A stretch of 64,000 bases of DNA from a virus. The stretch lies in IMG/VR virus record IMGVR_UViG_3300025875_000621, positions 30,638 to 94,637 of that record, one strand, 5' to 3'. Made by a program: the position numbers and the translations under genes. The notes beneath the pieces were generated by a model, which worked only from the letters and a program-made list of their open reading frames with translations, made no database searches and was not told where the DNA came from. Shown here in pieces: positions 9,227-48,936 of the stretch (position 1 is its first letter; each line of letters opens with the position of its first letter).

Positions 9227-9418
9227 CTACTCCGTGGCCAGCGCGTTCACCGCATGCTGCACCAGCACTGACGCGCGCCCCTGAGCCCGCGCGTACCAGG
9301 CCATGAGCCCGGCCGCGTCCACGGGCTCCGTGACCGTCCGGGACACCGCGCCCAGCTCCTTCCCGTTCCCGTCCAGCACGCGGGCCATGACCGTCACCTC
9401 TACGCGCGCCGCCCTCAC
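9227..9418 (-). CDS. small hypothetical protein
   Basis: GGAGGAG RBS plus GTG overlapping the upstream stop. Confidence 0.55.
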   Translation of the reverse strand: MRAARVEVTVMARVLDGNGKELGAVSRTVTEPVDAAGLMAWYARAQGRASVLVQHAVNALATE

Positions 9419-9735
9419 GGCTGCTCCTCCCGCGCGCTGCCCCGCTGCGCCTGCGGCGGCCGCATCTTCCACTGGCCGGGCGCGCGCCTCCCCAGCTCCT
9501 GGAACAGAGCCGCCACCGCGTCATCCCGGGTAGCGGTCTCCGGGAGAGCGCGGACCAGCTCCCAGGCCACGCCGACGCCACGCGCCACGCCGGCGGTCTC
9601 CGCACCCTCCAGGCTGGTGTACACCCGCCCCACCAGCTCCTGCTCCAGCGGCCGCGGTAGCCGCGCACCATGCGGCATGCGCACCGTCTGCAGCGCCCGC
9701 GCCCGCCGCCGGTCATCCTCCTGCGGGGAGGTCAC
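9415..9735 (-). CDS. hypothetical protein flanked by 22-bp direct repeats
   Basis: GGAGGAG RBS plus GTG; repeats at 9415-9436 and 9732-9753. Confidence 0.6.
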   Translation of the reverse strand: MTSPQEDDRRRARALQTVRMPHGARLPRPLEQELVGRVYTSLEGAETAGVARGVGVAWELVRALPETATRDDAVAALFQELGRRAPGQWKMRPPQAQRGSAREEQP

Positions 9736-9753
9736 GGCTGCTCCTCCCGCGCG
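9415..9753. repeat. 22-bp direct repeat TCACGGCTGCTCCTCCCGCGCG (two copies)
   Basis: exact copies at 9415-9436 and 9732-9753. Confidence 0.9.
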
Positions 9754-10082
9754 TTCTCCCGGTGCTCACCGTCCGCGGTGCTCACCGTCTCCGCCTGGCC
9801 CTGCCCGCGCTGCTTCCTGTTCCGCGGCCGCCCCGGCACGCGCACCTCCGGCGGGCTCACGCCCACGCGGTCCAGCTCCTGCTCCGTCCACCCAGCCCGG
9901 GTGCACGCCGCGTACGCCTCAGCGTCCTCCTTCTGCCGCTCCGTCACCACGGCCTTCGCCTCACGCAGCGCCGTCCTGGTGCGGGCCATGGCCTGCACCG
10001 TGCTCATCCGGCCGGCCAGCTGCTCCTCCAGGAGCTGCCTGGCCCGGTCCTCGTACTGCTCTGGGGTGGGTGGGGTCGCCAT
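9732..10082 (-). CDS. plasmid-type helical protein divergent from the mob operon
   Basis: AYAACTRAGWTEQELDRVG...PGRPR resembles a family recalled next to mobC/oriT in actinobacterial plasmids. Confidence 0.6.
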   Translation of the reverse strand: MATPPTPEQYEDRARQLLEEQLAGRMSTVQAMARTRTALREAKAVVTERQKEDAEAYAACTRAGWTEQELDRVGVSPPEVRVPGRPRNRKQRGQGQAETVSTADGEHRENAREEQP

Positions 10083-10124
10083 GCACGCAGCGTAGCGCTC
10101 CCTCCCCTCACTGCCACCCCACTC

Positions 10125-10250
10125 CGTCTGTCCACAGCTGGGGGGAAACCCTGTGGGTGAGTGGGTGTGAGCAAGCTAGAGGGATAGGGCCCCTAACGGC
10201 GCCCCATCCCTGGACGCCAGGGTGACGCTGTGCGACCCTGGCGTACACCG
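10125..10250. other. candidate oriT
   Basis: non-coding gap between divergent units; minus-strand CTAGCTTG^C at 10171-10179 resembles MOBP nic sites; 10-bp inverted repeat 10214-10223/10235-10244. Confidence 0.45.
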
Positions 10251-10308
10251 GTGGTTCCCCTGGCGGGGATCGCTGCGCTGGGCTGACACACGACAGACGG
10301 AGGAGCCA

Positions 10309-10806
10309 GTGCCACAGGACAGGCCGCTGACGGCGGCGGACATGATGGAGCGGCTGCCGTTCAGCGTGCGGGGCACGCCGGGCTGGATGGACCGGGAGAC
10401 GGCGGACGGGCGGACCATCGCGGCCGGCGCGATCAGCGCCGTGGAGTGGGTCCCGCTCCTGGCGCTGTACACGCGGGCCCGGGAGGGCGGTCACGCGGGT
10501 CAGAAGATGGTGGGCTGGGTGAACGTGTACCGGTCTGGGCTGGACCCGCTGGAGCTGCTGGTGTCCGGGTCGTGCGACAACATCGCGCCGGGCCGATACC
10601 CGTGCGGGCTGGACCTGGCGGAGGTGGAGGGCACGCTGGACGGCATCGACGTGGCGGCCTGGGTCCGGGGTGAGCAGACGGAGGAGGAGGTGGGCCCGGT
10701 GCGGCAGCGGATCACGTCCGCGCGGGTGATCGGCGTGACCGTGTACCTGCCCGCGTCGGGCATGACCGGGGCGTTCCCGGACGCGTACGTGGAGGTGCTG
10801 AGGTGA
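10309..10806 (+). CDS. prohead-protease-like protein (stand-alone, displaced)
   Basis: ETADGRTIAAGAI...PLL...GH.G...VG and ITSARVIGVT...AFPDA resemble actinophage capsid maturation protease domains. Confidence 0.45.
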   Translation: MPQDRPLTAADMMERLPFSVRGTPGWMDRETADGRTIAAGAISAVEWVPLLALYTRAREGGHAGQKMVGWVNVYRSGLDPLELLVSGSCDNIAPGRYPCGLDLAEVEGTLDGIDVAAWVRGEQTEEEVGPVRQRITSARVIGVTVYLPASGMTGAFPDAYVEVLR

Positions 10807-11609
10807 CGGAGCTGGACGCCACGCGGCTGTGGCTCTCTGAGAACGGGGACCGGACGGCGCGGGACCGTGAGGTGCTGCGGACGGTGGTGGGTTCCGGGGT
10901 GCACGGGATCGCGCTGGAGGGGCAGGACGACCACGACGAGATGGGTGTGTTCGTGGAGTCCCCGCAGCAGGTGCTGGGCATCCGGGAGGACGCGCAGCAC
11001 TACGTGGCGCGGACGGTCCCGGAGGGGCACCGGTCCCGGCATGGGGACACGGACCTGACGCTGTACTCCCTGCGGAAGTACCTGGCGCTGGTGGCCACGG
11101 GGAACCCCACGGCGCTGCTGCCTCTGTTCACGCCGCGGGAGCAGGTGCTGCTGTCCACGCCGCTGGGTGAGCAGCTGCGCCTGTTCGGTCCCAGCCTGTT
11201 GTCTCAGCAGGCTGGCCGGCGGTTCCTGGGGTACATGACGGCGCAGCGTCAGCGGATCACGGGGGAGGACACGCGGCACACCCCGAACCGGCCGGAGCTG
11301 GTGGCCGCGCACGGCTTTGACACGAAGTACGCCAGCCACGCGCTGCGGCTGTGCATCCAGGGCCTGGAGGTGATGCAGACGGGGCGGCTGACGCTGCCGC
11401 TGCCGGACGGGCACAGGGAGCTGGTGCTGGAGGTGAAGCGCGGGGAGGTGCCGCTGGAGCAGGTGCTGGACCTGATCGACGTGCGCGCGGTGTTCCTGCA
11501 GTCCCTGCTGGACAGCGGGCGGTCTCCTCTGCCGGAGCGGCCGGACCTGGACGCGGTGAACACGTGGTCCACGGCCGCGCACCTGGGCTACTGGACGGCG
11601 GAGTCCTGA
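10803..11609 (+). CDS. Pol-beta superfamily nucleotidyltransferase (RlaP/PF10127-like)
   Basis: VGSGVHG...DDHDEMGV, GNPT, FDTKYASHALRL motifs. Confidence 0.85.
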   Translation: MTELDATRLWLSENGDRTARDREVLRTVVGSGVHGIALEGQDDHDEMGVFVESPQQVLGIREDAQHYVARTVPEGHRSRHGDTDLTLYSLRKYLALVATGNPTALLPLFTPREQVLLSTPLGEQLRLFGPSLLSQQAGRRFLGYMTAQRQRITGEDTRHTPNRPELVAAHGFDTKYASHALRLCIQGLEVMQTGRLTLPLPDGHRELVLEVKRGEVPLEQVLDLIDVRAVFLQSLLDSGRSPLPERPDLDAVNTWSTAAHLGYWTAES

Positions 11610-11761
11610 TGGACGTGCTGCTGGTGGTCCTGGCGGTGGTGGTCCTGGTCCTGTCCATGGCGTGCGGCTATCTGGGGCGCATGTTGCAGGTGGCTCTGCG
11701 GGAGCAGCGTGCGGACGCCGCGCGCATCCTGCAGGAGTGCGGAGGAGGACCGCTCCGGTGA
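11609..11761 (+). CDS. small membrane protein
   Basis: TGATG overlap, hydrophobic N-terminus. Confidence 0.55.
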   Translation: MDVLLVVLAVVVLVLSMACGYLGRMLQVALREQRADAARILQECGGGPLR

Positions 11762-12066
11762 GTGCGCCGTGGCCGGGCCGGGAGCATCTGCGGGACTGCC
11801 CGGCTGACACCGGGTGGGACGCCGTGGACTGTGACTGCGGTGGCCGGTCACGGCAGCGGGTGGGGGCGGTGCGCGCCCTGTCCGGTGCGGAGTGGATGCG
11901 GCGCATGCCGGAGGTGGAGGCCGCCTGGTGGCGGGACGTGCGGCGGCGGTTCATCGCGGAGTACCGGGCGCAGGGTCTGCGGCAGGTGCGGCCGCCGGAG
12001 GAGACCACGGAGTACGACGAGGAGGGTCGGATGGTGCGGCTGATCGTGGAGGGGTGGGCGGCGTGA
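11758..12066 (+). CDS. hypothetical protein
   Basis: GGAGGA RBS, GTGA coupling; H..DC...CDC. Confidence 0.55.
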   Translation: MSAPWPGREHLRDCPADTGWDAVDCDCGGRSRQRVGAVRALSGAEWMRRMPEVEAAWWRDVRRRFIAEYRAQGLRQVRPPEETTEYDEEGRMVRLIVEGWAA

Positions 12067-12179
12067 GGCGGCGTCACTGTGGGGCGTTCCACGTGGAGAG
12101 CGGCAGGTGGTGCGGCCGGTGGCGGTGGCACTTCGGGCGGCACCGGCTGGGGCGACGGTACGGGGAGGTGGGGAGGTGA
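12063..12179 (+). CDS. very small Cys/His protein
   Basis: coupled GTGA at both ends. Confidence 0.4.
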   Translation: MRRRHCGAFHVESGRWCGRWRWHFGRHRLGRRYGEVGR

Positions 12180-12583
12180 GGGAGCCGGGGCGGGAGCTGT
12201 CCCGGGAGCGCCGCGCGAACGTGCCGGGTGGCCGTCCTGGGCGGCACAAGGTGACCACTTCCCCGGAGGAGGAGGCGCAGCTGCTGCTGCTGGCTGGGGA
12301 GCTGCGGGTGACGGTGCCGCGGCTGCTGGTGGAGTCCACGCTGTCCCGGGACGGGGTGCTGCCGGCGGAGCGTAAGCAGCTGATGGTGGACCTGTTCGCG
12401 GTGCGCCGTCAGCTGTCTGGAGTGGCCACGAACCTGAACCAGCTGGCGCGGCGGGCGAACGTGGGGGAGCTGCCGGTGGTGGAGGTGCGGGAGGAGTTGC
12501 GTCACCTGCGGGAGGTGGCCGGTCCGGGTGGCCGGATTGACCAGGCGCTGGAGGCGCTGGCGGCTGCGGGGGTGGGCGGGTGA
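12176..12583 (+). CDS. mobC: relaxosome accessory protein MobC
   Basis: RRANVPGGR...VTVPRLLVES...LSGVATNLNQLARRAN. Confidence 0.9.
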   Translation: MREPGRELSRERRANVPGGRPGRHKVTTSPEEEAQLLLLAGELRVTVPRLLVESTLSRDGVLPAERKQLMVDLFAVRRQLSGVATNLNQLARRANVGELPVVEVREELRHLREVAGPGGRIDQALEALAAAGVGG

Positions 12584-12816
12584 CCACGCCGGAGCGTCAG
12601 GAGCTGCCGGTGGCTCTGACGACGGACGCGGGGGCGGTCATGGCGGCCACGCTGGACCTGCTGCGCGCCGGTGGCGTGGGGGTGGCCACGGCGCGGGAGC
12701 GGGCGTGGCTGGAGCTGTGCGGGGCGGCCACCCAGCTGGGGACGGCACTGGCCCGCTGGGACATGGCCATGGAGGCGTACAAGGACGCGCGGCGCGCTGA
12801 GGAGGCGGGGAGCTGA
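12580..12816 (+). CDS. hypothetical protein
   Basis: GTGA coupling to mobC. Confidence 0.55.
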   Translation: MTTPERQELPVALTTDAGAVMAATLDLLRAGGVGVATARERAWLELCGAATQLGTALARWDMAMEAYKDARRAEEAGS

Positions 12817-13010
12817 TGGGGACCGTGGAGGCGGAGCCGCCGTACGGGCCGGGCGCGCTGTGTGAGGAGTGCGGGCACTTCGCTGCCCGGCACGGCGCCG
12901 GTGGGTGCACCGGCGTGACCGCGAGCTGCGGGTGTGCAGGGATGCGCTGGCTGGGTGTGCTGTGGCCGCGGCCGTGGCTGCCCGCGCCGGACGGGCTGGT
13001 GGCGCAGTGA
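12816..13010 (+). CDS. small Cys-rich protein
   Basis: CEECGH...H...C...CGC, a phage-type motif; TGATG overlap. Confidence 0.6.
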   Translation: MGTVEAEPPYGPGALCEECGHFAARHGAGGCTGVTASCGCAGMRWLGVLWPRPWLPAPDGLVAQ

Positions 13011-13558
13011 GCGGGGAGCCGGACCCGCAGTACCAGGTGCAGCTGCGCCGGCCTGGGGAGCAGGCGTGGCAGGCGGCCACGACGTGGCAGCGGTGCGGGC
13101 GGAGCAACGCGCGGCAGCAGGCGCAGGTGTTCGCGGACGGCTACCCGGTGGGCGGTGCGGTGCGCGTGATGATGCGGGACGCGGTGGACGCCACCCCGGT
13201 GGAGGTGTTCCTGGAGGTGAAGGAGCCGGTGCGGAAGTGTCCGGCGTTGGACTGCGTGTGGGACACCCGCGGGACGGGTCACGGCGCCGGGATGCCGGTG
13301 TGCTGGCCGGACACCGGGAAGCTGGAGGGGTGCCTGCTGGGGAAGCGGCAGGAGGAGGCGGAGACCCCGGAGACGGACGACGCGGCGGCGGTGAAGCGGG
13401 TGCGCGCGTACTGCCAGGAGGTCAGCGCGCAGAGCATGGCGGCGGTACCCGCGGAGAGCCCGGAGGAGGGCAACCCGGAGGAGGCGGCCGCGGAGGCGCG
13501 GGCGGTGCGGTACTTCATGGCGCAGCGGGTGCTGAGGCTGCTGCGGGGGCCGGTGTGA
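13007..13558 (+). CDS. hypothetical protein
   Basis: GTGA coupling. Confidence 0.55.
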   Translation: MSGEPDPQYQVQLRRPGEQAWQAATTWQRCGRSNARQQAQVFADGYPVGGAVRVMMRDAVDATPVEVFLEVKEPVRKCPALDCVWDTRGTGHGAGMPVCWPDTGKLEGCLLGKRQEEAETPETDDAAAVKRVRAYCQEVSAQSMAAVPAESPEEGNPEEAAAEARAVRYFMAQRVLRLLRGPV

Positions 13559-13761
13559 CGGCGGCGCAGCGGCGGGAGCTGGTGGTGGCCCACGCGCTGT
13601 CCCTGGGGCTGTGCGGGGAGCGGTTCGGGCACCACGGGGTGTGCGACATGCCGCCCGGTCACCCGCCCATCGCGGAGGTCATGGGCTGGCTGCACGGTGA
13701 GGACGTGGGCGGTCCGCTGGACGCGTACCGGAGGCAGCTACTGGAGGAGGAGCGGACATGA
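13555..13761 (+). CDS. small Cys/His protein
   Basis: CG...CD.PPGH...H; coupled. Confidence 0.5.
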   Translation: MTAAQRRELVVAHALSLGLCGERFGHHGVCDMPPGHPPIAEVMGWLHGEDVGGPLDAYRRQLLEEERT

Positions 13762-14123
13762 GCGTGAGCCCAGAGGCGCGGGACTGGCTGGGTCGCCGTG
13801 TGCAGGTGCACCCGGCGTACGACACGGAGATGAAGCACCGGCCCATGGCGGAGGGCGTGGTGGTGGGGTTCTCCCCCGCTCCCAGCATCCTGGTGCGCGC
13901 GGAGGACGGGACGCAGACGGACTGGCAGGTGACGCTGCCCATCCGTGTGGTGGAGCAGTTTGCCGCCGCGCCGGCGTACGTGTCCCAGGAGGAGCGGGAC
14001 CGGGACCTGATCGCGCGGCACCTGCGCGCGGCGGCGTCCGCGACCAACATCACGGACTGGCCGGCGTACTTGCAGCGCGTGGCTGACGGGCACCGCACCG
14101 GCACCTCCTGGTACCGCCCGTGA
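13758..14123 (+). CDS. hypothetical protein
   Basis: GGAG RBS, ATGA overlap. Confidence 0.6.
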   Translation: MSVSPEARDWLGRRVQVHPAYDTEMKHRPMAEGVVVGFSPAPSILVRAEDGTQTDWQVTLPIRVVEQFAAAPAYVSQEERDRDLIARHLRAAASATNITDWPAYLQRVADGHRTGTSWYRP

Positions 14124-14248
14124 GGGCGTGGTGGCACCGGCGGCTGGGCCACACCGTGACGGTGCGGCGCGTGTCCGTGCCGATGTGGGACCCGTCCGCC
14201 CGGGGGGAGCTGATCGACTGCTCCTGCGGGAAGCGGTGGGCACGGTGA
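14120..14248 (+). CDS. 42-aa protein coupled to the relaxase
   Basis: GTG overlaps the upstream stop and its TGA overlaps the relaxase ATG; MRAWWHRRLGH...DCSCGKRWAR. Confidence 0.5.
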   Translation: MRAWWHRRLGHTVTVRRVSVPMWDPSARGELIDCSCGKRWAR

Positions 14249-15828
14249 TGCCGAACATCACCCGGGGCACCCGGCCGGGTGGGCTCATGGCGTACCTGGT
14301 GGGGCCAGGCCGGTCTAACGAGCACACGGAGCCGCACCTGGTGGCGGGGTCCTCCAGCATCATGGCCTGGTTCGATGAGGAGGAGCTGTCCCACGACGCG
14401 GCGCTGAGCATCGCGCGTGAGCTGGACGCCCCGCACCGGTTGTACGGGGTGGACGTCCCCGGCGGGCACATCTGGCACTGCTCCCTGTCCCTCCGCGCGG
14501 AGGAGGGGCAGCTGACGGATGAGCGGTGGGCAGAGATCGCCACGGACTTCATGGAGCGCATGGGCTTCTCCGGTGGCGGGGATGAGACGGAGCCCGGCGG
14601 GAAGGCCCCGGTGCGCTGGGTGGCGGTCCGGCACGGCCTGTCCAAGGCGGGGAACGATCACGTCCACCTGGTGGTGGACCTGGTGCGTGAGGACGGCACC
14701 CGGGCGGACGTGTGGCGTGACCAGGTGCGCGCGCAGAAGGTGTCCGGGGAGTTGGAGAAGAAGTACGGGCTGGAGGTGCTGGAGTCCCGCAGTCGTGGCC
14801 GTGGGGAGCGCGGGGTGAAGCCGTCGGAGCTGGCGCGGGCGCGGACCGCGGGTGCCCCGGAGACGGAGCGGGAGACGCTGGCGCGGACGGTGCGCGCCGC
14901 GGCCGCCGCCGCGGGGGATGAAGCGGAGTTCGTGCGCCGGCTGAGGGCGGAGCGGGTGCTGGTGCGGCCGCGGTACGCCACGGGCACGGACCAGGTGGTG
15001 GCCGGGTACTCCGTGGCCGTCCGTCCGTCCGGGACCGGGCAGCGGCCGGTGTGGTACGGCGGCGGGCACCTGGCCAAGGACCTGACGCTGCCGCGGCTGC
15101 GGGAGGACTGGGCGGACAGCCCGGAGGCTGCGCAGGGCGCGGTGGCGGAGTGGCAGGCAGCGCGCACGCAGCGGCGGCCGGCGGCGCCGGGCCGGGAGAC
15201 GCGGGTGCCTACCGCGGACGTGTGGGAGCAGGTGAACGCGGAGCTGGAGCAGGTGCAGGAGCGGCTGGGCCGCGTGCCCGTGGATGACGTGGCGGAGTGG
15301 GCGCGGGTGGCCCGTGAGACGTCCGGCGCGTTCGCCGCCTGGTCCCGGCGGGTGGAGACCACCCCAGGGCCGCTGGCGGCCACCGCGGACGCCCTGGCCC
15401 GGTCCGCGCACGTGCCTGCGTGGCAAACGCGTGGCCGGCGCCCGTCCGGGCCGTCCGCGCGGGGTGCTGCGCTGCTGCTGGCGTCCGCGGCGCACGGCGG
15501 GCGGGGCCCGGTGGCGGAGGCGGTGCTGCTGCGTCAGCTGACCAACATGGCGCGGGCGCTGCATGACGCGCATCTGGCGGTGGGGGATGCGCAGCGGGCC
15601 GCGCAGATCGCGTCCGCGGTGCGGCAGGACCTGGAGCGGGTGCGGCAGGTGCTGCCTGCCCCGGAGACGGCGCTGGCCCCAGCTGGGACGGTGCAGGAGG
15701 TGGCCCGGCCAGCGCCGCGGCCGCCCGCTCCCCCGGTGCGCCGGGTGGGGGACGTGCTGCCCGCGGACCTGGAGAGGGCCCGGCGGGTGCAGGACACCAC
15801 CGCAGAGCGCGGTGGCGCGGAGCGATGA
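14248..15828 (+). CDS. MOBP-family relaxase
   Basis: MPNITRG...LMAYL, HIWHCSLSL, VRHG...DHVHLVV (HUH). Confidence 0.92.
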   Translation: MPNITRGTRPGGLMAYLVGPGRSNEHTEPHLVAGSSSIMAWFDEEELSHDAALSIARELDAPHRLYGVDVPGGHIWHCSLSLRAEEGQLTDERWAEIATDFMERMGFSGGGDETEPGGKAPVRWVAVRHGLSKAGNDHVHLVVDLVREDGTRADVWRDQVRAQKVSGELEKKYGLEVLESRSRGRGERGVKPSELARARTAGAPETERETLARTVRAAAAAAGDEAEFVRRLRAERVLVRPRYATGTDQVVAGYSVAVRPSGTGQRPVWYGGGHLAKDLTLPRLREDWADSPEAAQGAVAEWQAARTQRRPAAPGRETRVPTADVWEQVNAELEQVQERLGRVPVDDVAEWARVARETSGAFAAWSRRVETTPGPLAATADALARSAHVPAWQTRGRRPSGPSARGAALLLASAAHGGRGPVAEAVLLRQLTNMARALHDAHLAVGDAQRAAQIASAVRQDLERVRQVLPAPETALAPAGTVQEVARPAPRPPAPPVRRVGDVLPADLERARRVQDTTAERGGAER

Positions 15829-15837
15829 GGAGGCACC

Positions 15838-16674: not shown

Positions 16675-16706
16675 CGTGCACGGGGCCACCGTGACCCCGT
16701 GACGCA

Positions 16707-16740
16707 CAGAGCCCCCCACCCGTCTGGGTGGGGGGCTCTG
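16707..16740. terminator. bidirectional hairpin terminator
   Basis: CAGAGCCCCCCACCC-gtct-GGGTGGGGGGCTCTG between the convergent mob and tra operons. Confidence 0.8.
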
Positions 16741-16748
16741 CTGCGTGC

Positions 16749-17204
16749 TCAGCTGAACAGACCGTCCGGTGGCTTCCCCACAGGCAGGGGCTCCGGGCGG
16801 TCCTGGTGCCGCTCCGGTGTGCAGGAGCGCATGGGCCCGTCCGGGTCCGTCAGGGCGTCCATGTGCGGGCGGTAGTGGTCCCGCAGCCACACGGACATGC
16901 CGGTGGCCCCGTCCAGGCCCAGGTGCTCCCAGGCGCGCCACAGGGCGTCCAGGGTCAGGACGGCCTCCGGGTGCTCCCACCAGGTCTGGCACCACACGCG
17001 GTTCTGCCCGAACGCGCGCCGGTAGAAGGGCGCCAGCCAGTCCTGGACCCAGGTGGGGGAGTCCGGGAACTGGAGGGCGGGGGGCTCCTCCGGTGGCGGT
17101 GGTGGCTGCCGGGGGCGGGGCTTCACGGACGCGGCCAGGGCCTCCAGGGCCGGGTCTGTGCGGTCCTGCACAGACCCGGCCCAGGCGTCCGGGGGGACGA
17201 TCAC
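16749..17204 (-). CDS. DUF4913 family protein
   Basis: WC..WWEHPEA..LDALWRAWEHL...GMSVWLRDH...DGP. Confidence 0.85.
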   Translation of the reverse strand: MIVPPDAWAGSVQDRTDPALEALAASVKPRPRQPPPPPEEPPALQFPDSPTWVQDWLAPFYRRAFGQNRVWCQTWWEHPEAVLTLDALWRAWEHLGLDGATGMSVWLRDHYRPHMDALTDPDGPMRSCTPERHQDRPEPLPVGKPPDGLFS

Positions 17205-37142: not shown

Positions 37143-37145
37143 CCG

Positions 37146-37625: not shown

Positions 37626-37707
37626 TCCGGCGAGCCGCACAGTCACCGGGCGGGCACCCGCGGTTACTGTCGTCGGCGCCCGTCCCCGCACCCACCTGGA
37701 GCACCTG

Positions 37708-41700: not shown

Positions 41701-42651
41701 GCCATAGCCGCGGTGGTCGGCATCGTGGCCCTGGTCGTGGCGAACTGGGACAAGATCAAAGAGTTCACGATCCAGGCGTGGGAGGCCGTGTCCGGCGCCG
41801 TCTCCGGCGCCATAGACGCGGTGGTGGGGTTCGTGAAGGGCCTCCCGCAGCGGGCCCTGGACGCCCTGTCCTCCTTCGGCTCCATGCTGGCCAGCGGGGC
41901 GCGGGCGGCCTGGCAGTTCTACTACGACAACGTGATCGAGCGGGCCCTGGCCGTGGTCGGCTGGGTGGCCGGGCTGCCGGGCCGGGTGATCGGCGCCCTG
42001 TCCTCCCTGGGCTCCTCCATCGCCGGCGTGGCGCGCTCCGCCTGGCAGTGGTTCAACGACACGGTGGTGGAGCGGGCGAACTCCCTGGTCTCCTGGGTGA
42101 CCGGGCTCCCCGGCTCCATCGCGGGCGCGATCGGCAACCTGGGCTCCCTGCTGTACAGCAAGGGCCTGGACCTGATGCAGGGCCTGGTGAATGGTATTAG
42201 CGCGGCCGCTTCATTCGTGGGGAATGTGGGCCGTAACATCGTGAACTCCGTTATCGGATTCGTGAACTCGCAGGTCATCGGCCGGGTGAATGATCTGCTG
42301 GAGTTCAGCATCGCGGGCGTGAGGATTGACCCGCCGGACATTCCGCGGATTCCGCTGCTGGCGGACGGTGCCATTGTTCAGCGCGCCACGCTGGCAGTGG
42401 TGGGTGAGGCCGGGCCGGAGGCAGTCATCCCGCTGTCCCCGTCCCGCTCCCGTCAGCGGCGCGCCCTCATGGAGGAGTCCGGGCTGGCCGGGAACGGCGG
42501 CGGAGCTGGCATCCACGTGGACGCCAGCCAGACGTACATCGTGCGGGACACGCAGACCGCGCAGGAGGTGGGCGCCGTGGTCGGCCAGCGGGTGGTCCGT
42601 GACATTCGCCAGGGCGTCTCCGGCGCCTACACCGCCGGGAGCGCAGCATGA
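38770..42651 (+). CDS. tape measure protein
   Basis: 1293 aa Ala-rich helical; LGDAYIQVTAD start; NWDKIK; LADGAIV...VGEAGPEAVIPL. Confidence 0.93.
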   Translation: MSAAGQKLGDAYIQVTADASKTGEELSRKVSRDLEAAARRVGETFDEALTEAVENSTEGVGDALGEELERASRRAGGRFAEDFSKQLGSALSGLPDVQLEADSTETDRALDEVRRRIAALRTQRIGIDVSAGAATTELGLLQERLHELGRGTTDVTLRADTAAAAAELAAAEAEVRRLDGQTANVDVRVNDSGLRGISGTAGNAMGGLSLVTAAALAVSPALIPIGAAALAGLGAIGPLAASAGAGLAVLGLGFSGVSDTVSLLGKRQDTAALQAATSAGSQVSSANQVAQATAALANTQQNAADSAVRAAETISRSQEDLQDAVTSAAKDVIRSQQELESAVTDAAREVARAEQSAADAVAAALRRQEGAEDSLTRALRTQQQAQLDLTSARRTAEQQIEDLASSVVSNTNAQRQAALDVAEAELYLGKVRRSSRAKPADLEAAQLAYDVELQRQKDLQTQGRRLAEQQEETAAKGVDGSDVVVDAQQRLVDANERVQDAQESAADAAAQLDRARLDGAEAVARAQEEGTARVQRAQESLVESQEKGQDRVERATRAVSDAIRDQEQQARQSAFSISQAMAAVSAAGASAGAAGGSALAGIDQQLAKVNPATLRFAQYVQDTLQPAWERMKGAAAAGLLPGAEDAINKLLPLLPQVEGFLGSLGTTLGGILGDAATELSSPFWVDFFTNLQTVAGPALEDMSQALLDVLHGLGGIVEAFFPFTDDVGGGITDLTGKFAAWGEQLGSSEGFHEFIAYVQENWPKVQQIISDLATVVGTLVDAGDEAGGGILTFMQDLTGFLAGLSAGELQAVVAGFLGFQAVAGVTSTLGDAVEKAKQAKETYTSLRDGVTAVKDAYDGLPAKLSTVGTSLKNAASSAGSAASSAASTAGRWVSMAASATVSAAKVAGQWALSAARTIGSLVLMAGQFVVQGAAMAASAAVSAARVVASWVLMGAQSLIQAARMAAAWLIAMGPIGLAIAAVVGIVALVVANWDKIKEFTIQAWEAVSGAVSGAIDAVVGFVKGLPQRALDALSSFGSMLASGARAAWQFYYDNVIERALAVVGWVAGLPGRVIGALSSLGSSIAGVARSAWQWFNDTVVERANSLVSWVTGLPGSIAGAIGNLGSLLYSKGLDLMQGLVNGISAAASFVGNVGRNIVNSVIGFVNSQVIGRVNDLLEFSIAGVRIDPPDIPRIPLLADGAIVQRATLAVVGEAGPEAVIPLSPSRSRQRRALMEESGLAGNGGGAGIHVDASQTYIVRDTQTAQEVGAVVGQRVVRDIRQGVSGAYTAGSAA

Positions 42652-44231
42652 CCAGCAGCACCACGCTGACCGAACTGCGCCGCCAGCTCGTCGCCAACCC
42701 CCGCGGGGCCGGAGGGATCGCGGGCTGGACCGGCTCCTACGGCACCGGGGGCGCCGGCACGCGGGTTGCTGCCGTCAACGACCCGGAAGTCCTCGGCGGC
42801 ACGTACGTCCGACAGACCTGGACCACCGCGCCGACGGCTTACAACGGGGGACTCGCGGCCGGTGTCACTGGCAGCACATCGAGCTTCTACGTCATCCCCG
42901 TCACAGGCGGGCAGCCCCTCGCGGTTGCCGCCCTGACGCGGGTTTCCCGCGACCAGCGCCTCGGGCTGCAGCTGTTTTGGTACAACGCCGCGGGCGTCAG
43001 CCTCGCAGGCCCCAGCCTCACCGCCTCCGCTGAGATCATCCCCGGTGGCACCTGGCACCGTCTCAGCGCCGTCGTTACCGCACCCGCCGATGCCGTCCGC
43101 GTCGTCCCCCAGATCACTGGCTACTCCGGCGCGGGAGCCTCCCTGTGGGCCGTGGGCGACTACCTCGACGTGACCGCGGTCCTGGTAGAGCAGGCGTCCA
43201 CGGTCGGGGAATACTTCGACGGGGGGCAGGACGACAGTCCCCCGCTCTACTACAGCTGGGGTGGCGTGCCGCACGCCTCTCAGAGCCTGCTGCAGCGGAT
43301 TGACTACCGCACCGCTCCCTTCTCCACTTCCCGCGGGGTGTTCACCCCGCGGTCCCGCCGCGTCTGGAGCATCGGTGACCCGGACGCCCCCGCCGTGTCC
43401 CTGAACGGCGTGGACGGGGACGGGGTGACCTGGGTGTGCGCGGACCCGGTGGGCTGGTACGCCTCCCCGCCCACGGAGCTGGGGCTGACGGACCGCGCCA
43501 CGCATGGCTCCAACTACGGGCGGGGCGCGTACAAGGCCAGGGTGCTCACCCTGTCCGGGGCGTTCCGCACCTGCACCGCTGACCCGGACCTGCTGGACGA
43601 CATCGCGGAGCGGCTGCAGGACTGCCTGGACCCCATGGTGGACACGCTGCTGTCCGTCACGGAGCGCATCCCGAAGCAGCTCACGGTGCGGCCCTCCAGT
43701 GAGGTCAGCGTGCTGCCCGTCCCTGGGCACCGGAACGCCCGTACCTTCTCCGTGGTCCTCACCGCCGGGGACCCGTTTAAGTACGCGGCGGGCGCGGCCG
43801 GGCTGACCACGGTGGAGCTGGCGCTGCTGGACCCCAGCACCGTCCGCGGCTTCACCCACCCCATGGAGCACCCGCTGGACCACGGCGGTGCACCCCTGGA
43901 GGCCCCGGACCGGAAGAACGCAGCCAACCCCGGACAGCTGCCGGTGGACGTGATCCTGCGGTTCGTGGGCCCCGCCGTCCGGCCGGTCATCACGAACGCC
44001 AGCACCGGGGAGTTCTTCGCCCTGAACCGTGAGCTGCTGATCGGTGAGGAGGTGGTGGTGGACACGGAGCTGCGCACCGTCTTGGTGAACGGAGCCTCCA
44101 GCACCGCGATCCGCCAGCCCCGCTCCACCTTCTGGCAGCTGGCCCGCGGCGTGAACGACCTGAGGTTCACCGCGGACTTCTACCAGTCCACCGCCCGCGC
44201 CTACGTGTCCTACCGCCCCCGCTGGAAGTGA
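42648..44231 (+). CDS. distal tail protein (Dit) with N-terminal carbohydrate-binding-like domain
   Basis: LVANP...GEYFDG N-domain; GW...G.Y.ARVLTLSG...AGDPFKY...L..GVN Dit domain. Confidence 0.75.
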   Translation: MTSSTTLTELRRQLVANPRGAGGIAGWTGSYGTGGAGTRVAAVNDPEVLGGTYVRQTWTTAPTAYNGGLAAGVTGSTSSFYVIPVTGGQPLAVAALTRVSRDQRLGLQLFWYNAAGVSLAGPSLTASAEIIPGGTWHRLSAVVTAPADAVRVVPQITGYSGAGASLWAVGDYLDVTAVLVEQASTVGEYFDGGQDDSPPLYYSWGGVPHASQSLLQRIDYRTAPFSTSRGVFTPRSRRVWSIGDPDAPAVSLNGVDGDGVTWVCADPVGWYASPPTELGLTDRATHGSNYGRGAYKARVLTLSGAFRTCTADPDLLDDIAERLQDCLDPMVDTLLSVTERIPKQLTVRPSSEVSVLPVPGHRNARTFSVVLTAGDPFKYAAGAAGLTTVELALLDPSTVRGFTHPMEHPLDHGGAPLEAPDRKNAANPGQLPVDVILRFVGPAVRPVITNASTGEFFALNRELLIGEEVVVDTELRTVLVNGASSTAIRQPRSTFWQLARGVNDLRFTADFYQSTARAYVSYRPRWK

Positions 44232-44238
44232 GCCCCCC

Positions 44239-45267
44239 ATGACGAAGCGCAAGCTGTCCTACCTGCAGGGCACGGACGCCGCGAAGTACACCCTGCCCGC
44301 GGAGGACCACCGGCTGAACCACGCCGGGCTCTGGACCCCAGACGCCACCGCCGGCACGCCCGCGCTCTCCACCCGCAGCGGGTTCGTGCCCGGACCGGGG
44401 AACCCGGGTGCCGTGTTCTCCGGCGCCGGGGGAGTGACGATCAACCCGTTCCAGTTCGTGCTGTGGGGCACCGTCACCACCACGTCCGGGGTGTACGAGG
44501 GCGTCTCAGACGCCGTGGAGTTCCTGCCCATCACCGCGGCGTCCTCCACGGAGTTCCGGCGGGGCCGCATCGTCGTCCGCGTCTATGACCAGCTGGCGGC
44601 CGCGGCTAAGGACGATTGGGGACTGGAGGTCATCTACGGTCCCGCGGCGGCCACCGCTGGTGCGGCGCAGCTGCCTGCCCTGCCGGCCAACGCGTTCCAG
44701 GTGCGGGAGTTCTCCGTGTCCAACACCGGCGTGATCGTCACCGGCGGGTACGTGCCCTGGGTGGGGTCCCGCACCGGCATCACCCCCATGTCCGACCCGA
44801 ACGACGCCACACCCGGCGGGTTCGTGGGCCAGTACCGGGACCACCCCACCCGCAGCCTGGAGCGGTGGGACGGGAACGCCTGGCGCACCATGTTCCACCA
44901 GCTGGGGGCCACCAACCGGCAGCCGGTCCAGCCGTGGCTGGCCGCGGGCTGGTCACCCGGCGGTGACGGCGCCACCTACGAGGTGAAGAACGGGTGGGGG
45001 AACCTCTCCGTCCACCTGGTCCGCGCCTCCGGCGGCACCTACCCCGCCGCCACCGCGATCCTCACCCTGCCCGCGACCATGACGTACACGAACGGGCTGG
45101 TCGTGCCAGCCCGGCCCACGCAGATGCAGTGGCCGGCTGGGCTCAAGTTCGGCGGCATCCTGGGTGAGTTCAAGGTCGCCCCGTCCGGCGTGGTGTCCAT
45201 GGGGCTGGCCGTGGAGCAGGGCTCCGGCATCGTTGCCACCGCCAGCTTCCCCGTGGGGAACCCCTGA
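44239..45267 (+). CDS. minor tail / baseplate protein
   Basis: R...IVVRVYD...G.AA..P.LPAN; C-terminal LP...RP beta-rich domain. Confidence 0.7.
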   Translation: MTKRKLSYLQGTDAAKYTLPAEDHRLNHAGLWTPDATAGTPALSTRSGFVPGPGNPGAVFSGAGGVTINPFQFVLWGTVTTTSGVYEGVSDAVEFLPITAASSTEFRRGRIVVRVYDQLAAAAKDDWGLEVIYGPAAATAGAAQLPALPANAFQVREFSVSNTGVIVTGGYVPWVGSRTGITPMSDPNDATPGGFVGQYRDHPTRSLERWDGNAWRTMFHQLGATNRQPVQPWLAAGWSPGGDGATYEVKNGWGNLSVHLVRASGGTYPAATAILTLPATMTYTNGLVVPARPTQMQWPAGLKFGGILGEFKVAPSGVVSMGLAVEQGSGIVATASFPVGNP

Positions 45268-45375: not shown

Positions 45376-46791
45376 ATGCCCCCCACCACCGCCCGCCAGC
45401 TGCAGATCATCGACGCAGGCTGGTCCGCCAGTGACGTGGACCCCGCAGAACTGGTGGATGACGCCTGGATCGCGGCCAACACCAGCCCCGGCCGCCCGTT
45501 CTCCCAGACCCGGCACCTGGGGCAGCGCACCCTGCAGGCCGTCCGCACCATCGGCGTGGACCCGTACGAGGGGGCGGACCGGTACGCACGCGCCATGTCC
45601 GGCACCCGGACCGCGAAGCTGCCCCGCAGCATCCGGCGCACCCTCATCCAGAAGGGCGGCCTGACGCAGGAGCAGATGCGCCGCATCGCGCAGCGCACCG
45701 GTTACCCCGTGGTGGAGGCGTGGTCCTCCCGCACCGCTGGCGGCGCCATGCGCGGCGTGTGGGGTGCGCTCATCCACCACACCGGCACTGCCTGGTCCGC
45801 CGCCGGGGACTACCCCACCCTGCGGATCGTGCGGGACGGCCGCAGTGACCTGGCCAACTCCCTGTCCGCGTTCGGGCTGGGGAAGTCCGGGACCATCTAC
45901 CTGGTGTCCGCCCGGACGTCCTGGCACGCCGGAGCGGGGAACTGGAACGGGTGCACGGACGGGAACGGCTACCTGCTGGGCATCGAAGCGGAGAGTGACG
46001 GGAAGAACTGGACGGACCAGGAGCGGGACGCCTACCCCCGCCTGGTGGCCAGCATCCTGATCGAGATCGGGCAGGACGACCGGTTCACCACACGGCACGC
46101 CTCCTACGCGCTGCCGAAGGGCCGGAAGGTGGACGCCGGTGGTCTGGACATGGACCGCTTCTGGCGGGAGGTGTACGCCTACCTGGCGCACCCGGAGACC
46201 ATCAGCCGGAACAGCGCCAGCCCCGCCCCGGCGCCCGCGCCCGGTGCTCTCAGCCACGTGGTGGCCGCGGGAGACACCCTGTACTCCATCGCCCGCCGGT
46301 TCGGGGTCACGGTGGAGAACCTGACCGCCTGGAACGGCCTGTCCTCCACCGCGCTGTCCGTGGGTCAGGTCCTGCGCGTGGCCGCCGGCCAGACCCCGGC
46401 CCCCGCCCCGGCTCCGGCTCCGGCGCCCGCTCCGGCGCCCGCCCCGCGGCCGCCGGTGATCCCCGCGTTCACGGAGGCCGCGCCGTCCTGGCCCACCCGG
46501 CTCCGGATGCCCGCCACCCACTACTTCGGGGACGTGAACGGGCCCGCCCAGTCCCACGGTGGCTGGGCGGCCTGGGAGAAGCCGTACGTGCGCTGGGTGC
46601 AGCGCAAGCTCATCGTGCTGGGGTTTGTCCCCGGCGTCACGGACTGGCGCTCCGGCTGGGCGGACGGCGTGTGGGGCCCGGCCACCACCACCGCCATGGC
46701 CGCCTACCAGCGGCGGTGGCTGCCCAGCACCACCCGCTTCGGCCGCTGTTACGCGGACGACTACCGGCTGCTGGTGGCCGCCCGCGCCTGA
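45376..46791 (+). CDS. endolysin: amidase_2 + LysM + PG-binding-like domain
   Basis: IHHTG, WHAG, GIEAE, RH...GRKVD; HVVAAGDTLYSIARRFGV LysM; DGVWGPAT. Confidence 0.9.
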   Translation: MPPTTARQLQIIDAGWSASDVDPAELVDDAWIAANTSPGRPFSQTRHLGQRTLQAVRTIGVDPYEGADRYARAMSGTRTAKLPRSIRRTLIQKGGLTQEQMRRIAQRTGYPVVEAWSSRTAGGAMRGVWGALIHHTGTAWSAAGDYPTLRIVRDGRSDLANSLSAFGLGKSGTIYLVSARTSWHAGAGNWNGCTDGNGYLLGIEAESDGKNWTDQERDAYPRLVASILIEIGQDDRFTTRHASYALPKGRKVDAGGLDMDRFWREVYAYLAHPETISRNSASPAPAPAPGALSHVVAAGDTLYSIARRFGVTVENLTAWNGLSSTALSVGQVLRVAAGQTPAPAPAPAPAPAPAPAPRPPVIPAFTEAAPSWPTRLRMPATHYFGDVNGPAQSHGGWAAWEKPYVRWVQRKLIVLGFVPGVTDWRSGWADGVWGPATTTAMAAYQRRWLPSTTRFGRCYADDYRLLVAARA

Positions 46792-46799
46792 CCCCTTCC

Positions 46800-46827
46800 G
46801 CCCCGGCCCTGACTGCAGGGCCGGGGC
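46800..46827 (+). terminator. hairpin after the endolysin
   Basis: GCCCCGGCCCTG-actg-CAGGGCCGGGGC. Confidence 0.65.
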
Positions 46828-46863
46828 GCGCCCACCCACCCCCGTCAGCAGGAGCGCAGCCCG

Positions 46864-48009
46864 GTGAGTGACACCCCCTGGACGTACACGTTCTACGACA
46901 TGCGGACCCGTGAGGAGCTGGCCGTGCTCCCGCTCACCGGCGTCAGCTACACGCGCGCCATTCGGGGTGTCGGTGGCCTGAACGCCTCCCTGGACCTGGG
47001 GCCGGACAAGACGCGGAAGCTGAACCCGTGGCGGGCCACCCGCGGCCGCCGCACCGCCCTGTACGTGGAGTACGGGGAGGACATGGTGTGGGGCGGCCCG
47101 GTCACCTTCCGGGAGCGCAGCGACACCTCAGAGGTCATGTCCATCAGTGGAGTGACCTGGGAGGGCTGGCTGCACCGGCAGCGCCTGATGAGCACCATCC
47201 CCCTGCAGCGCCTGCCCCTCCCGTTCGCGCTTCGCCTGCTGCTGGTGAACGCGCAGCAGGTGACGAACGTGGGCCTGGAGCTATTCGACTACATCAGGGG
47301 CGGCATCACCTTCCCGGGCGGGGACCTGTGGAACCGCCTGGAGGACGTGGGCCCCTACCCCGCGGAGGAGGTGAAGCCCGTGCTGGAGCTGATGGAGGAG
47401 TACCCCACCTCCGTGGACCGGGAAGCGGAGTTCGCGATCCGTCCCCGGCGGAACGCCACCACCGGCCGGGTGGAGCTGCCCATGATGGTGGGCATCCCCA
47501 CCCTGGGCCGCCGGTACGAGGACACGGGCCTGAACTTCTCCTGGCCGCAGGGAGACCTGCTGCACTGGAAGCTGGTGGAGGACGGCTCCGGGGCGGACAA
47601 CGTGATGCCGCTGCTGGGCGCCGGCAGCGGACCCACCCAGCCGTTTGAGACCATCAGGGACCAGGACGCCGGGGTGGATGAGCTGGCGTCCGGCTACCCG
47701 TCCTGGATGCGGGACTACCGCGCGCAGGACGTGGACGATGAGCTGGCGCTGCGGCGGCGGGGTGTGGCTGAGATGCGCACCGGCCTGGCCAGTGAGTACG
47801 TGTTCACCGGGGTGGAGGTGAACCCCACCGCCTACATCGGCCGCGTGGACCCGGGGGATGACGTGGGCCTCCAGATCACGTCCAAGGCGCTGGAGGAGTG
47901 GCCGGCCGCGGTCACCACCATCACCCGGGTGCTGGGGGAGAGCGTCACCGTGGGGGACGGCGGCGCCGGGGACAGCGTGAAGCTGACCGTGGGCGGGGTG
48001 GCCGCGTGA
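46864..48009 (+). CDS. minor tail protein (ReqiPepy6 Gp37-like / Tal)
   Basis: LPL.GVSY...VWGGPV...GAGSG...PGDDV. Confidence 0.75.
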   Translation: MSDTPWTYTFYDMRTREELAVLPLTGVSYTRAIRGVGGLNASLDLGPDKTRKLNPWRATRGRRTALYVEYGEDMVWGGPVTFRERSDTSEVMSISGVTWEGWLHRQRLMSTIPLQRLPLPFALRLLLVNAQQVTNVGLELFDYIRGGITFPGGDLWNRLEDVGPYPAEEVKPVLELMEEYPTSVDREAEFAIRPRRNATTGRVELPMMVGIPTLGRRYEDTGLNFSWPQGDLLHWKLVEDGSGADNVMPLLGAGSGPTQPFETIRDQDAGVDELASGYPSWMRDYRAQDVDDELALRRRGVAEMRTGLASEYVFTGVEVNPTAYIGRVDPGDDVGLQITSKALEEWPAAVTTITRVLGESVTVGDGGAGDSVKLTVGGVAA

Positions 48010-48650
48010 GCAGTGACCCGGAGGTCGCATCCCTCACCGCCATGGTGGCGCGCATGCAGCGGGAGCTGCGGGAGCTGGCCACCGGTAATCCCCTGAACCG
48101 CGGGTCCGTGCAGCACGCGAACGGCGGGTACGTGTCCCTGTCCTCCATCGCCTTCGGGCAGGTGACCTATGAGTCGCCGAACGATGGGCAGTCCGCCACC
48201 CTGACCCAGGCCCAGGACGTCAGCGGGTTCGGCACCGGGTTCCGTGACATAGGCCCCCCCGTGACCCTGGACGTGCTCGTCACCGGAGGCGCCCTGCGGG
48301 TGGACATCAGCACCAGCATCTTCCTGCGCATGAACAGCGGCACGGACCCCCTCTCAGAGATCAACGGGACGATGAGCTACGCGCTGCTGGGGCCCGTGGA
48401 GTCCCAGGAACTGCTGAACCCGGGGTCCCCCGTGGCCGTCCCCCCGGACTCGTTCTCCGCGGTCTCCGTGTCCTGCGCGGCGCCCGCGCCACGCATCCAG
48501 CTGACCGCCGGCAACTTCGCCACGCACGCTGGCCTCCGGCCCGGCTGGTACCGGATCGCCGCCCGGTACTCCCTGACCTACGCGGCGTCTGCCAAGGCGT
48601 CCGCGTTCGCTGACTTCTACGGCCAGCGGCTGGCCGCCACACCCCTGTGA
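48006..48650 (+). CDS. minor tail protein
   Basis: N-terminal coiled coil then beta-rich domain; GTGA coupling. Confidence 0.65.
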   Translation: MSSDPEVASLTAMVARMQRELRELATGNPLNRGSVQHANGGYVSLSSIAFGQVTYESPNDGQSATLTQAQDVSGFGTGFRDIGPPVTLDVLVTGGALRVDISTSIFLRMNSGTDPLSEINGTMSYALLGPVESQELLNPGSPVAVPPDSFSAVSVSCAAPAPRIQLTAGNFATHAGLRPGWYRIAARYSLTYAASAKASAFADFYGQRLAATPL

Positions 48651-48669
48651 CGAACCCGAAGGAGACCCC

Positions 48670-48936
48670 GTGAGTGACACCGCACTGCCCGTGGATCAGC
48701 CCAGCGCCGCGCCCACCAGGAAGTGGGTGGCCGGGACCAGTACCGGCGGCGGCACCCTGGTGCTGGTGTGGGCGGCTGGGCAGCTGGGCGTGGACATGCC
48801 GCCGGAGGTGGCGGGCGCGCTGGTGCTGGCCGCTGGGGCGGCCGCGGCGTGGCTGCGGCGGAACAAGGCGGTGCTGGTGCGGGAGACCGGCGGCCGCCAC
48901 ACGGACGCGGACGGGGACGGCTTCCCGGACCGCTGA
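48670..48936 (+). CDS. holin-like protein
   Basis: PTRKW, two TMs flanking DMPPEVAGA; ends the tail module. Confidence 0.65.
   Translation: MSDTALPVDQPSAAPTRKWVAGTSTGGGTLVLVWAAGQLGVDMPPEVAGALVLAAGAAAAWLRRNKAVLVRETGGRHTDADGDGFPDR

Follow-up and report, generated by a model that had tools for sequence, protein, structure and literature searches.

We detected an apparently complete conjugation module embedded in the structural region of a tailed phage, represented by the IMG/VR virus record IMGVR_UViG_3300025875_000621. The record is 94,637 bp long, and the stretch that we analysed, called the window here, is its last 64 kb (bases 30638-94637); positions refer to the window unless they are labelled contig. 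The element is a tailed phage of the siphovirus type whose host, an actinobacterium of very high G+C content, probably belongs to the Kineosporiaceae or a neighbouring family. Between 9227 and 29600 it carries a candidate origin of transfer (oriT), a mobilization (mob) operon with genes for MobC and a relaxase, a type IV secretion system (T4SS) operon and a divergent regulator, and this transfer (tra) module ends within 400 bp of the major capsid gene. Comparison with bacterial loci supports the view that the transfer gene set is complete and equivalent to a standard actinobacterial T4SS locus of plasmids or integrative and conjugative elements (ICEs) plus oriT, MobC and relaxase. We consider it fairly probable that a phage ancestor captured this complete actinobacterial conjugation module and kept it, with the genome moving both by virion and by mating.

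The T4SS operon lies on the minus strand and was compared with 80 actinobacterial genome loci from an alignment-based scan; a genome scan with a single protein as query found no locus. Its last gene encodes a DUF4913 protein (16749-17204; PF16259, 121 bits) that holds the same position in 76 of the 80 loci. The adjacent VirD4-type coupling protein (17201-18994), present in 78 loci, matched PF12696 (99.7 bits) and PF02534 (65 bits), both above cut-off, as well as the CD1115 family, and has two N-terminal membrane helices by hydropathy. A gene for a 515-aa protein (19872-21419), found in all 80 loci, corresponds to the C-terminal ATPase half of VirB4 (VirB4-C) and has invariant Walker A and Walker B motifs. 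By sequence this ATPase is weakly VirB4-like, with VirB4 profiles below cut-off, and comparisons of VirB4-C and of the SCO6880 profile with PDB sequences yielded noise or no match. Its structural model (pLDDT 79.6) found its best PDB fold match in the VirB4 C-domain of Thermoanaerobacter (4ag5; E 2e-14, TM 0.76). The neighbouring gene (21416-22978) encodes an SCO6880-family protein (NF042935, E 5e-150) with two membrane helices and a VirB4 N-terminal-like domain, a VirB3/VirB4-N equivalent whose model had R388 TrwK/VirB4 chains as all of its top 10 fold matches (E 2.5e-9 to 1e-7). Because of the fold matches of both models, we read VirB4 as split into a membrane-anchored N-terminal half and an ATPase C-terminal half. 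Between the coupling protein and VirB4-C genes lies a gene for a lineage-specific protein of 294 aa (18991-19875) with no homologue in the 80 bacterial loci and no family match.

Upstream of the SCO6880 gene in the same operon we found three membrane proteins (22965-25225), which hydropathy describes as polytopic (405 aa), bitopic (256 aa) and two-helix (90 aa) and which have colinear homologues in 59-72 of the loci. From topology and position they may be regarded as the VirB6-like, VirB8-like and pilin/VirB2-3-like analogues usual in monoderms, respectively. Next come genes for a DUF6668 protein and a 479-aa ParA/MinD-like ATPase (25218-27339; PF20373, 56.6 bits, and AAA_31/CbiA matches), with homologues of the two in 70-71 of the loci (70 for the ParA-like protein); the latter is the only ParA-family gene of the contig and its sole CbiA match. 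The operon starts with genes for a 170-aa lipoprotein with an LAGC lipobox (up to 28996) and a membrane-anchored M23 peptidoglycan hydrolase, a VirB1 analogue (27369-28469; PF01551, 91.5 bits), and homologues of both stand beside the T4SS in 10 of the 80 loci, Kineococcus and Quadrisphaera included. In a distant phage relative (L011) we observed an M23-peptidase-like gene (7822-8142), also on the minus strand just 5' of the capsid gene, whose product is 34% identical over 116 aa to the M23 protein described here and has the same place and orientation; it could be a transfer-module remnant or an unrelated lysin.

Divergent from the T4SS operon, on the plus strand, is a gene for a helix-turn-helix (HTH) regulator (29145-29600) with a weak HTH_31 match. 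We count it as the right edge of the module because a 56% identical homologue occupies the same divergent position in the Quadrisphaera locus L054. Additionally, a palindrome with a 10-bp stem (GGGTCTGTGC, a short loop and GCACAGACCC) was observed in two copies, at 17149-17178 within the DUF4913 coding sequence and at 27007-27036 within that of the ParA-like protein, at both ends of the T4SS operon; these could be protein-binding sites.

The core of the operon, from DUF6668 through DUF4913, is colinear with 59-80 of the 80 actinobacterial loci. Like the SCO6880-type plasmid or ICE loci of Quadrisphaera sp. INWT6 (NZ_VUOH01000008.1) and Kineococcus xinjiangensis (NZ_PTJD01000011.1) and the SCO6880-type plasmids of Glutamicibacter arilaitensis Re117 (NC_014549.1) and Miniimonas sp. 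S16 (NZ_CP029051.1), the phage module has the order DUF6668, two-helix, bitopic and polytopic membrane proteins, SCO6880, VirB4-C ATPase, coupling protein and DUF4913. It also shares the ParA-like, M23 and lipoprotein genes, the divergent HTH regulator, the MobC-relaxase pair and the oriT-like layout, at 45-63% amino-acid identity. Unlike the bacterial loci, it has neither integrase nor plasmid backbone, abuts a capsid gene, avoids CGA/TCG and palindromes, contains a leader and a terminator of phage type, and adds eight mob-operon genes and the gene for the 294-aa protein; none of the 80 loci carries any phage gene of this contig. The ATPase family occurs on 471 actinobacterial plasmids, 149 of them conjugative by MOB-suite typing. 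Plasmids of the SCO6880 type from Rhodococcus equi and Clavibacter are conjugative by experiment.

The mob operon lies to the left of the T4SS operon and converges with it. Its candidate oriT (10165-10295) consists of a AGCAAGCTA box, inverted repeats and a short hairpin followed by the 14-mer TCGCTGCGCTGGGC at 10270-10283, which occurs exactly once in the contig. The same layout of box, inverted repeats, hairpin and (G/A)TCGCTGCGCTGGGC stands directly 5' of mobC in the bacterial loci L100 and L054. The phage and these two loci have the 14-mer exactly in common, although the identity between their proteins is only about 47-59%; the hairpin has other stem sequences than in the bacteria and keeps its pairing. 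From this layout, and with a DNA fold z-score of -2.0, we infer that the region may function as an origin of transfer. On its left, on the minus strand, are three small genes (63, 106 and 116 aa; 9227-10082) called from third-position G+C (GC3), and we take 9227 as the left edge of the module because a homologue of the 116-aa protein (9732-10082) adjoins mobC, divergently, in L100.

To the right of the candidate oriT, on the plus strand, MobC (12176-12583) matched PF05713 above cut-off (34 bits) and is 47-48% identical to the MobC proteins of L100 and L054. The relaxase (14236-15828) is of the MobA/VirD2 type (PF03432, 47.1 bits against a cut-off of 24.6), is 59% identical to the relaxase of L054, and shares with its bacterial homologues a conserved N-terminal tyrosine motif and a GNDH-x-H histidine motif. 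Profile matches place the MobC, relaxase, VirD4, SCO6880 and M23 genes at or near the positions that a first-pass annotation of the window had given them. That annotation also called the relaxase MOBP and listed a VirB4 gene and VirB6-, VirB8- and pilin-like genes. Sub-threshold NCBIfam matches to MobB and TraI_MobP make the MOBP type suggestive only, VirB4 is present as two genes rather than one, and the membrane proteins have topologies that would fit the VirB6-, VirB8- and pilin-like labels.

Eight genes of the mob operon, four between oriT and mobC and four between mobC and the relaxase gene, are missing from L054 and L100, where mobC and the relaxase gene are neighbours. The first group comprises genes for a 165-aa protein (10309-10806), an RlaP-family nucleotidyltransferase (10803-11609; PF10127, 84.5 bits), a 50-aa membrane peptide and a 68-aa protein (up to 12066), and the second encodes proteins of 78, 183, 68 and 107 aa (12580-14123), of which those of 183 and 107 aa had no Pfam or NCBIfam match. 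The operon ends with a gene for a 272-aa protein (15856-16674) with internal 54-nt repeats and no family match, and a bidirectional terminator-like hairpin (16700-16745) separates the convergent mob and T4SS operons. We also observed that the 165-aa protein resembles, at about 30% identity, an inner part of the MuF/protease protein of the related phages L004 and L006 (5721-6155), and it may be a MuF-associated cargo domain turned into a separate gene.

All 13 called genes of 9227-16674, on both strands, use G-ending codons far above any other gene of the contig; GCG makes up 71% (31-43% elsewhere) and ACG 65% (19-33% elsewhere), and the bacterial relaxase and mobC homologues are without this bias. 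Two causes were considered and rejected. The bias tracks the coding strand on both sides of oriT, which speaks against a strand asymmetry from replication or the transferred strand, and it stays before codons other than GAN (0.75 vs about 0.4), which speaks against avoidance of C before GAN.

The junction between the tra module and the capsid gene recurs in a second phage. With the capsid protein as query we found contig Ga0210040_10004613 (L013 here), 17.9 kb long and from an independent metagenome assembly, which matches the window in order and orientation at 79-86% DNA and 64-91% amino-acid identity. It carries VirB4-C, SCO6880, membrane proteins, DUF6668, ParA-like, M23, lipoprotein, HTH regulator, a 65-aa gene, capsid, major tail and adaptor genes in this order, and thus supplies the relative with the same synteny that the first-pass annotation had proposed looking for. 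A chimeric join of tra and capsid genes is all but excluded, because chance could not give the same join to two assemblies with every fifth base different between them. The tra-module protein best conserved between the two is the HTH regulator (91% amino-acid identity, ratio of nonsynonymous to synonymous substitution rates, dN/dS, 0.18). In agreement with the earlier statement that no integrase or att-like boundary separates the two parts, the contig as a whole has neither a tyrosine nor a serine recombinase gene that we could detect, and a repeat search revealed no att-like direct repeats around the transfer block.

In related phages the gap between the protease and capsid genes measures 2.8-6.6 kb and varies in content; here it is filled by about 25 kb of small plus-strand genes, including those for DNA modification, and by the 20-kb transfer module. 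Such an arrangement is rare. Scans of IMG/VR with the SCO6880 protein and with a VirB4-C alignment found no other viral contig, three related IMG/VR records are without VirB4-C, and among 50,697 deposited phage records there was no homologue of the relaxase or the VirB4 ATPase, with coupling-protein-like matches limited to three weak fragments.

The tra genes carry the sequence signature of the phage. Ten six-base restriction palindromes, including GTCGAC, CGATCG, GAGCTC and CTCGAG, have three sites in the 20.4-kb block, where the closest bacterial homologues would predict about 98, and they are equally depleted in the rest of the phage and in both halves of L013. CGA/TCG trinucleotides occur at 4.9-5.3 per 1000 in mob, T4SS and phage genes alike, a five-fold depletion against the 27.6 per 1000 of the Kineococcus, Quadrisphaera and Occultella tra loci. 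Where a four-fold codon precedes GAN, its last base is G in 99-100% of cases in mob, T4SS and phage genes and in 95-98% in L013, compared with 31% in the tra genes of Kineococcus and Quadrisphaera; the serine codon TCG is almost unused in the contig, and L013 shares the CGA/TCG depletion. The motif avoidance common to tra and phage genes that was noticed at first pass is very strong in these counts. Avoidance of CGA at codon boundaries would require hundreds of synonymous changes, and its cause could be a defence that recognizes short motifs or a link to the DNA modification genes of the element.

Regulatory signals are likewise shared between the two parts, as first proposed. The ribosome-site motif CTGAGGAG is present in 16 copies where 3.3 are expected, and one copy (27346-27353, minus strand) stands 6 nt before the start codon of the ParA-like gene. 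The 16-mer leader CACCCCACCTGAGGAG lies 5' of two phage genes, of the ParA-like tra gene and of the ParA-like gene of L013, and was found in none of the 80 bacterial loci. A close copy of the terminator-like hairpin (16700-16745), with a near-identical stem and an inverted loop, separates convergent phage genes at 55715-55765, and the hairpin is absent from the 80 bacterial loci as well.

Synonymous divergence (dS) between this contig and L013 is 0.33-0.50 for tra genes and 0.21-0.49 for phage structural genes, and all compared tra open reading frames (ORFs) are intact in both lineages. The two phage-borne VirB4-C copies form a clade with 100/100 support on a long stem, nearest to Kineosporiaceae. 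Because of the shared clade, the similar dS and the intact ORFs, capture is older than the split of the two phage lineages. These results support assimilation of the tra block rather than a recent insertion, and the tra genes have been kept by selection since capture. To the extent that sequence allows a test, the first-pass reading of a single contiguous element with an assimilated conjugation system is upheld.

The sequence supports uptake by the ancestor of a whole plasmid or ICE conjugation module, which entered the variable gap that separates the protease gene from the capsid gene. The module has since stayed intact and evolved together with the rest of the phage. The genome would be circular once a cell is infected, or while it is carried without integration, and the HTH regulator would control the minus-strand T4SS operon. 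MobC and the relaxase would then nick the hairpin-plus-TCGCTGCGCTGGGC site near 10270-10283, and the coupling protein would pass a single strand of the entire genome (94.6 kb), bound to the relaxase, via the T4SS into a touching cell. In addition to virions, the phage would then have another way to spread, one that needs no receptor and no lysis. In this scheme the circular state, the actual transfer and the packaging of the whole genome are steps that we infer. For the fuller statement, a tailed-phage lineage with a permanent, co-evolving relaxase and T4SS that uses both virions and contact-dependent single-strand transfer of its whole genome, we put the chances a little short of even.

Several observations weigh against capture followed by movement along both routes. 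No plasmid replication or partition system and no repressor-integrase switch was recognisable in the contig. IMG/VR lists the record as linear, without end repeats and with a CheckV completeness of 91%, and the case for circularity consists of one ORF that closes across the contig ends. This last ORF (63473-64000) is open at the contig end and, when joined to contig 1-60, closes 12 codons on, with its stop immediately ahead of the contig's first gene, whose ribosome site and GTG follow; we take this as mild evidence that would fit a circular or circularly permuted map without assembly overlap. Both carriers are metagenome contigs, and the left junction has internal evidence only (a phage-derived gene in the mob operon and shared signals), with no second contig across it. 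Two IMG/VR relatives with terminal repeats, at 48.9 and 58.8 kb and without a T4SS, raise the matter of capsid capacity. The dN/dS of tra genes (0.18-0.64) is somewhat above that of structural genes, and the mob sub-module (9227-16674) has a G-ending codon usage of its own. Finally, in a population study of Streptomyces ICEs, transfer of the single T4SS-type ICE was not obtained.

The module may instead be maintained for another purpose, such as delivery of proteins or other DNA, mobilisation of host or satellite DNA, contacts between cells in aggregating hosts, or plasmid exclusion. T4SSs are known to have been co-opted for protein secretion elsewhere, the contig shows no plasmid maintenance system, and the phage lineage has genes beyond those of the bacterial loci, in the form of the 294-aa gene of the T4SS operon and the extra mob-operon genes. 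We nevertheless regard this as rather unlikely, since an oriT-like cis site, MobC and a relaxase with its catalytic motifs are all kept beside the T4SS; these three are what self-transfer needs and what protein-secretion T4SSs usually lose. Decidedly unlikely, in our view, is a conjugative plasmid with a phage-derived particle module that is defective or resembles a gene transfer agent, is unable to package 94.6 kb and leaves conjugation as the only route. The two relatives at 48.9 and 58.8 kb are the nearest of those in IMG/VR that have terminal repeats, and compared with them about 46 kb extra lies between the protease and capsid genes here; phage-plasmids that outgrew their capsid and persist as plasmids are also described in the literature (PMC10879196). 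Against this, all genes for head, tail, packaging and lysis are undamaged, with purifying selection acting on them in both lineages, and restriction-site avoidance together with DNA modification genes fits DNA that enters as an injected duplex. The CheckV value of 91% implies nearest complete references of about 100 kb, full-length capsid relatives (55-60% identity) lie on contigs of 87-97 kb, and the related Microbacterium phage Rasputia measures 97 kb, so a genome of 94.6 kb plausibly fits this capsid.

That the tra genes are an inert passenger heading to decay seems highly unlikely. A search space of billions of proteins gave just two carriers, and several tra genes have dN/dS values of 0.5-0.64, above most structural genes; high GC3 compresses dS, however, and so inflates these ratios, every compared tra ORF is intact in both lineages at a dS of about 0.4, and the Walker and relaxase motifs are conserved. 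An assembly chimera, or a recent insertion of an ICE or plasmid into a phage or prophage, might be suspected, the record being a viral contig from a metagenome and lacking end repeats. It would have to account for the same junction in an independent contig about 20% diverged, for the lack of integrase and att, for tra genes recoded to the CGA/TCG and palindrome avoidance of the element, unlike the bacterial loci, and for leader and terminator sequences of phage type within the block. We consider it close to refuted, with a probability that is very nearly negligible.

Among known systems, conjugation genes are sporadic in phage-plasmids, and surveys treat virion and conjugation as alternatives, with reviews assigning the two routes different costs, host ranges and size limits (PMC12282955, PMC7969092, bioRxiv 10.1101/2025.11.07.687105); the rarity that the first-pass annotation had asserted agrees with these surveys. 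A 2025 review sets the two routes against each other as alternatives, and we found no claim in it that a conjugative phage has not been observed. Elements like P1 gained mob/oriT only after phage function was lost (PMC10879196). One parallel is the Streptomyces plasmid-phage pZL12/phiZL12 (Zhong et al. 2010, J Bacteriol 192:3747), which, according to papers that cite it (PMC3583192, PMC4487206, PMC7157519), conjugates and forms phage and is, like the element here, a non-integrated actinobacterial tailed phage of about 90 kb. In those citing papers, its system is a TraB/FtsK-type major tra gene with two adjacent genes, double-stranded DNA and ParAB. Unlike pZL12, our element has no FtsK/SpoIIIE-family translocase gene anywhere in the contig (PF01580, E <= 1) and no ParAB pair, and instead carries the 20-kb relaxase, coupling protein and T4SS set with oriT.

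The E. coli "conjugative phage-plasmid" p1002-1, from closely related strains, is described as having arisen when two recognisable parents fused, one a conjugative plasmid and the other a phage-plasmid (bioRxiv 10.1101/2025.03.14.643293). It too unites phage and conjugative gene sets on one replicon, but here the module is embedded in the structural region without a plasmid backbone, is deeply ameliorated and occurs in two diverged lineages. Phage-ICE tandems of Streptococcus are described as arising by integrase-driven site-specific accretion and travelling as a unit with separable parts (Sci Adv 2026, PMC13651849); in contrast, no integrase or att was found here, and the phage and tra parts share one sequence signature.

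Rasputia (MT639646.1, Rogerhendrixvirus) has homologous TerL, portal, MuF/protease, capsid, major tail and adaptor proteins (27-42% identity), and its head genes too are scattered among small genes. Both Rasputia and plasmid pS1D4-14.2 of Streptomyces sp. S1D4-14 (NZ_CP041606.1) are about 97-99 kb, encode ParB_N proteins and are without relaxase, coupling protein or VirB4; pS1D4-14.2 looks like a phage-plasmid because it carries portal, capsid and tape measure genes as well as those for ParA and ParB. It is one of several plasmids (59-191 kb) with a capsid gene of this family; they come from Streptomyces, Rhodococcus and Micromonospora and are all typed as non-mobilizable. By these comparisons our element would count as a plasmid-phage or conjugative phage-plasmid, but one with a complete, embedded and deeply ameliorated T4SS-type system.

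If the proposed dual transfer is true, the textbook split between capsid and conjugation would fail for a T4SS-type system, and receptors alone would no longer set host range; receptor barriers would not hold back phage genomes, and lysis would not be needed for their spread. Classifiers of viromes and plasmidomes would then mis-sort such elements, and the trade-off between the two transfer routes could be tested within one element. The recoded tra genes also give a clean example from nature of the speed and completeness with which a captured module takes on the anti-restriction rules of a phage.

Gene calling over the contig was guided by third-position G+C, since at about 74% G+C across its whole length mechanical ORF lists were useless, and yielded about 140 genes, of which almost every one is on the plus strand. 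The 64-kb window revealed no tRNA genes, and about 40 small or unknown proteins of the contig had no Pfam match. TerL (contig 4664-6235; phrog_38, E 4e-101), the portal (contig 9976-11502; phrog_776, E 4e-127) and a 908-aa MuF/protease fusion (contig 11903-14629; phrog_859) lie upstream of the window, at contig 4.6-14.6 kb, in line with the earlier suggestion to look for TerL and portal beyond it.

Immediately right of the HTH gene, the region 29601-29858 (plus strand) contains a phage-type operator-like palindrome, GTACATTCCTGGTGTAC (29615-29631), followed by the ribosome site CCAGCTGAGGAG and the 65-aa gene. The pattern GTACA-N7-TGTAC has seven sites in the window, compared with 0.3 expected. 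Together, GTACATTCCTGGTGTAC and CCAGCTGAGGAG form a cassette of about 60 bp (29601-29660) between the HTH and 65-aa genes; L013 (9650-9662) is without this cassette, and there the HTH stop and the 65-aa start share bases.

From the capsid gene on, profile matches to phrog and Pfam families bear out the capsid-neck-tail-lysis module that had been read on the plus strand as far as 48936. The 590-aa major capsid protein (30006-31778; phrog_777, E 1e-160) is 82% identical to that of L013 and 42% identical to the capsid hexamer protein of Rasputia. By eye, the 5' leader of the capsid gene (29860-30005; L013 9860-10000) is near-identical between the two contigs, with coding DNA only about 80-86% identical, and it is probably a late promoter or a leader structure that has been conserved. 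Head-tail joining and tail genes follow at 31872-38669 (phrog_792, phrog_783, phrog_5 and PF23781, with synteny to related phage contigs), including those for the major tail protein (34858-35508), a head-tail adaptor (35598-36263), a tail completion/Neck1 protein (37146-37625) and tail assembly chaperones (37708-38669). The region 38770-45267 holds genes for a 1293-aa tape measure protein that matched tape measure genes of Streptomyces phages, a Dit-type distal tail protein (42648-44231; PF22768) and a 342-aa tail-tip candidate for which no match was found.

The late module ends within 45376-48936, all on the plus strand, with an endolysin of amidase_2, LysM and PG_binding domains (PF01510, PF01476, PF01471), a 381-aa minor-tail-like protein with weak matches to minor tail proteins of Streptomyces phages, and proteins of 214 and 81 aa; a holin and a receptor-binding protein were not identified among the annotated tail and lysis genes. 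No DnaB-type helicase or PolA (family A polymerase) was detected in the contig. Located 3' of the lysis genes are those for an HTH_36 initiator-like protein (50846-51811), RecT, a PD-(D/E)XK exonuclease, an XRE regulator and RusA, and replication seems to rely on the initiator-like protein, RecT and the exonuclease. At 291-2594, left of the transfer block, two ParB_N-domain proteins are followed by a TET-associated glycosyltransferase (PF20691), a predicted DNA hypermodification cluster of the phage.

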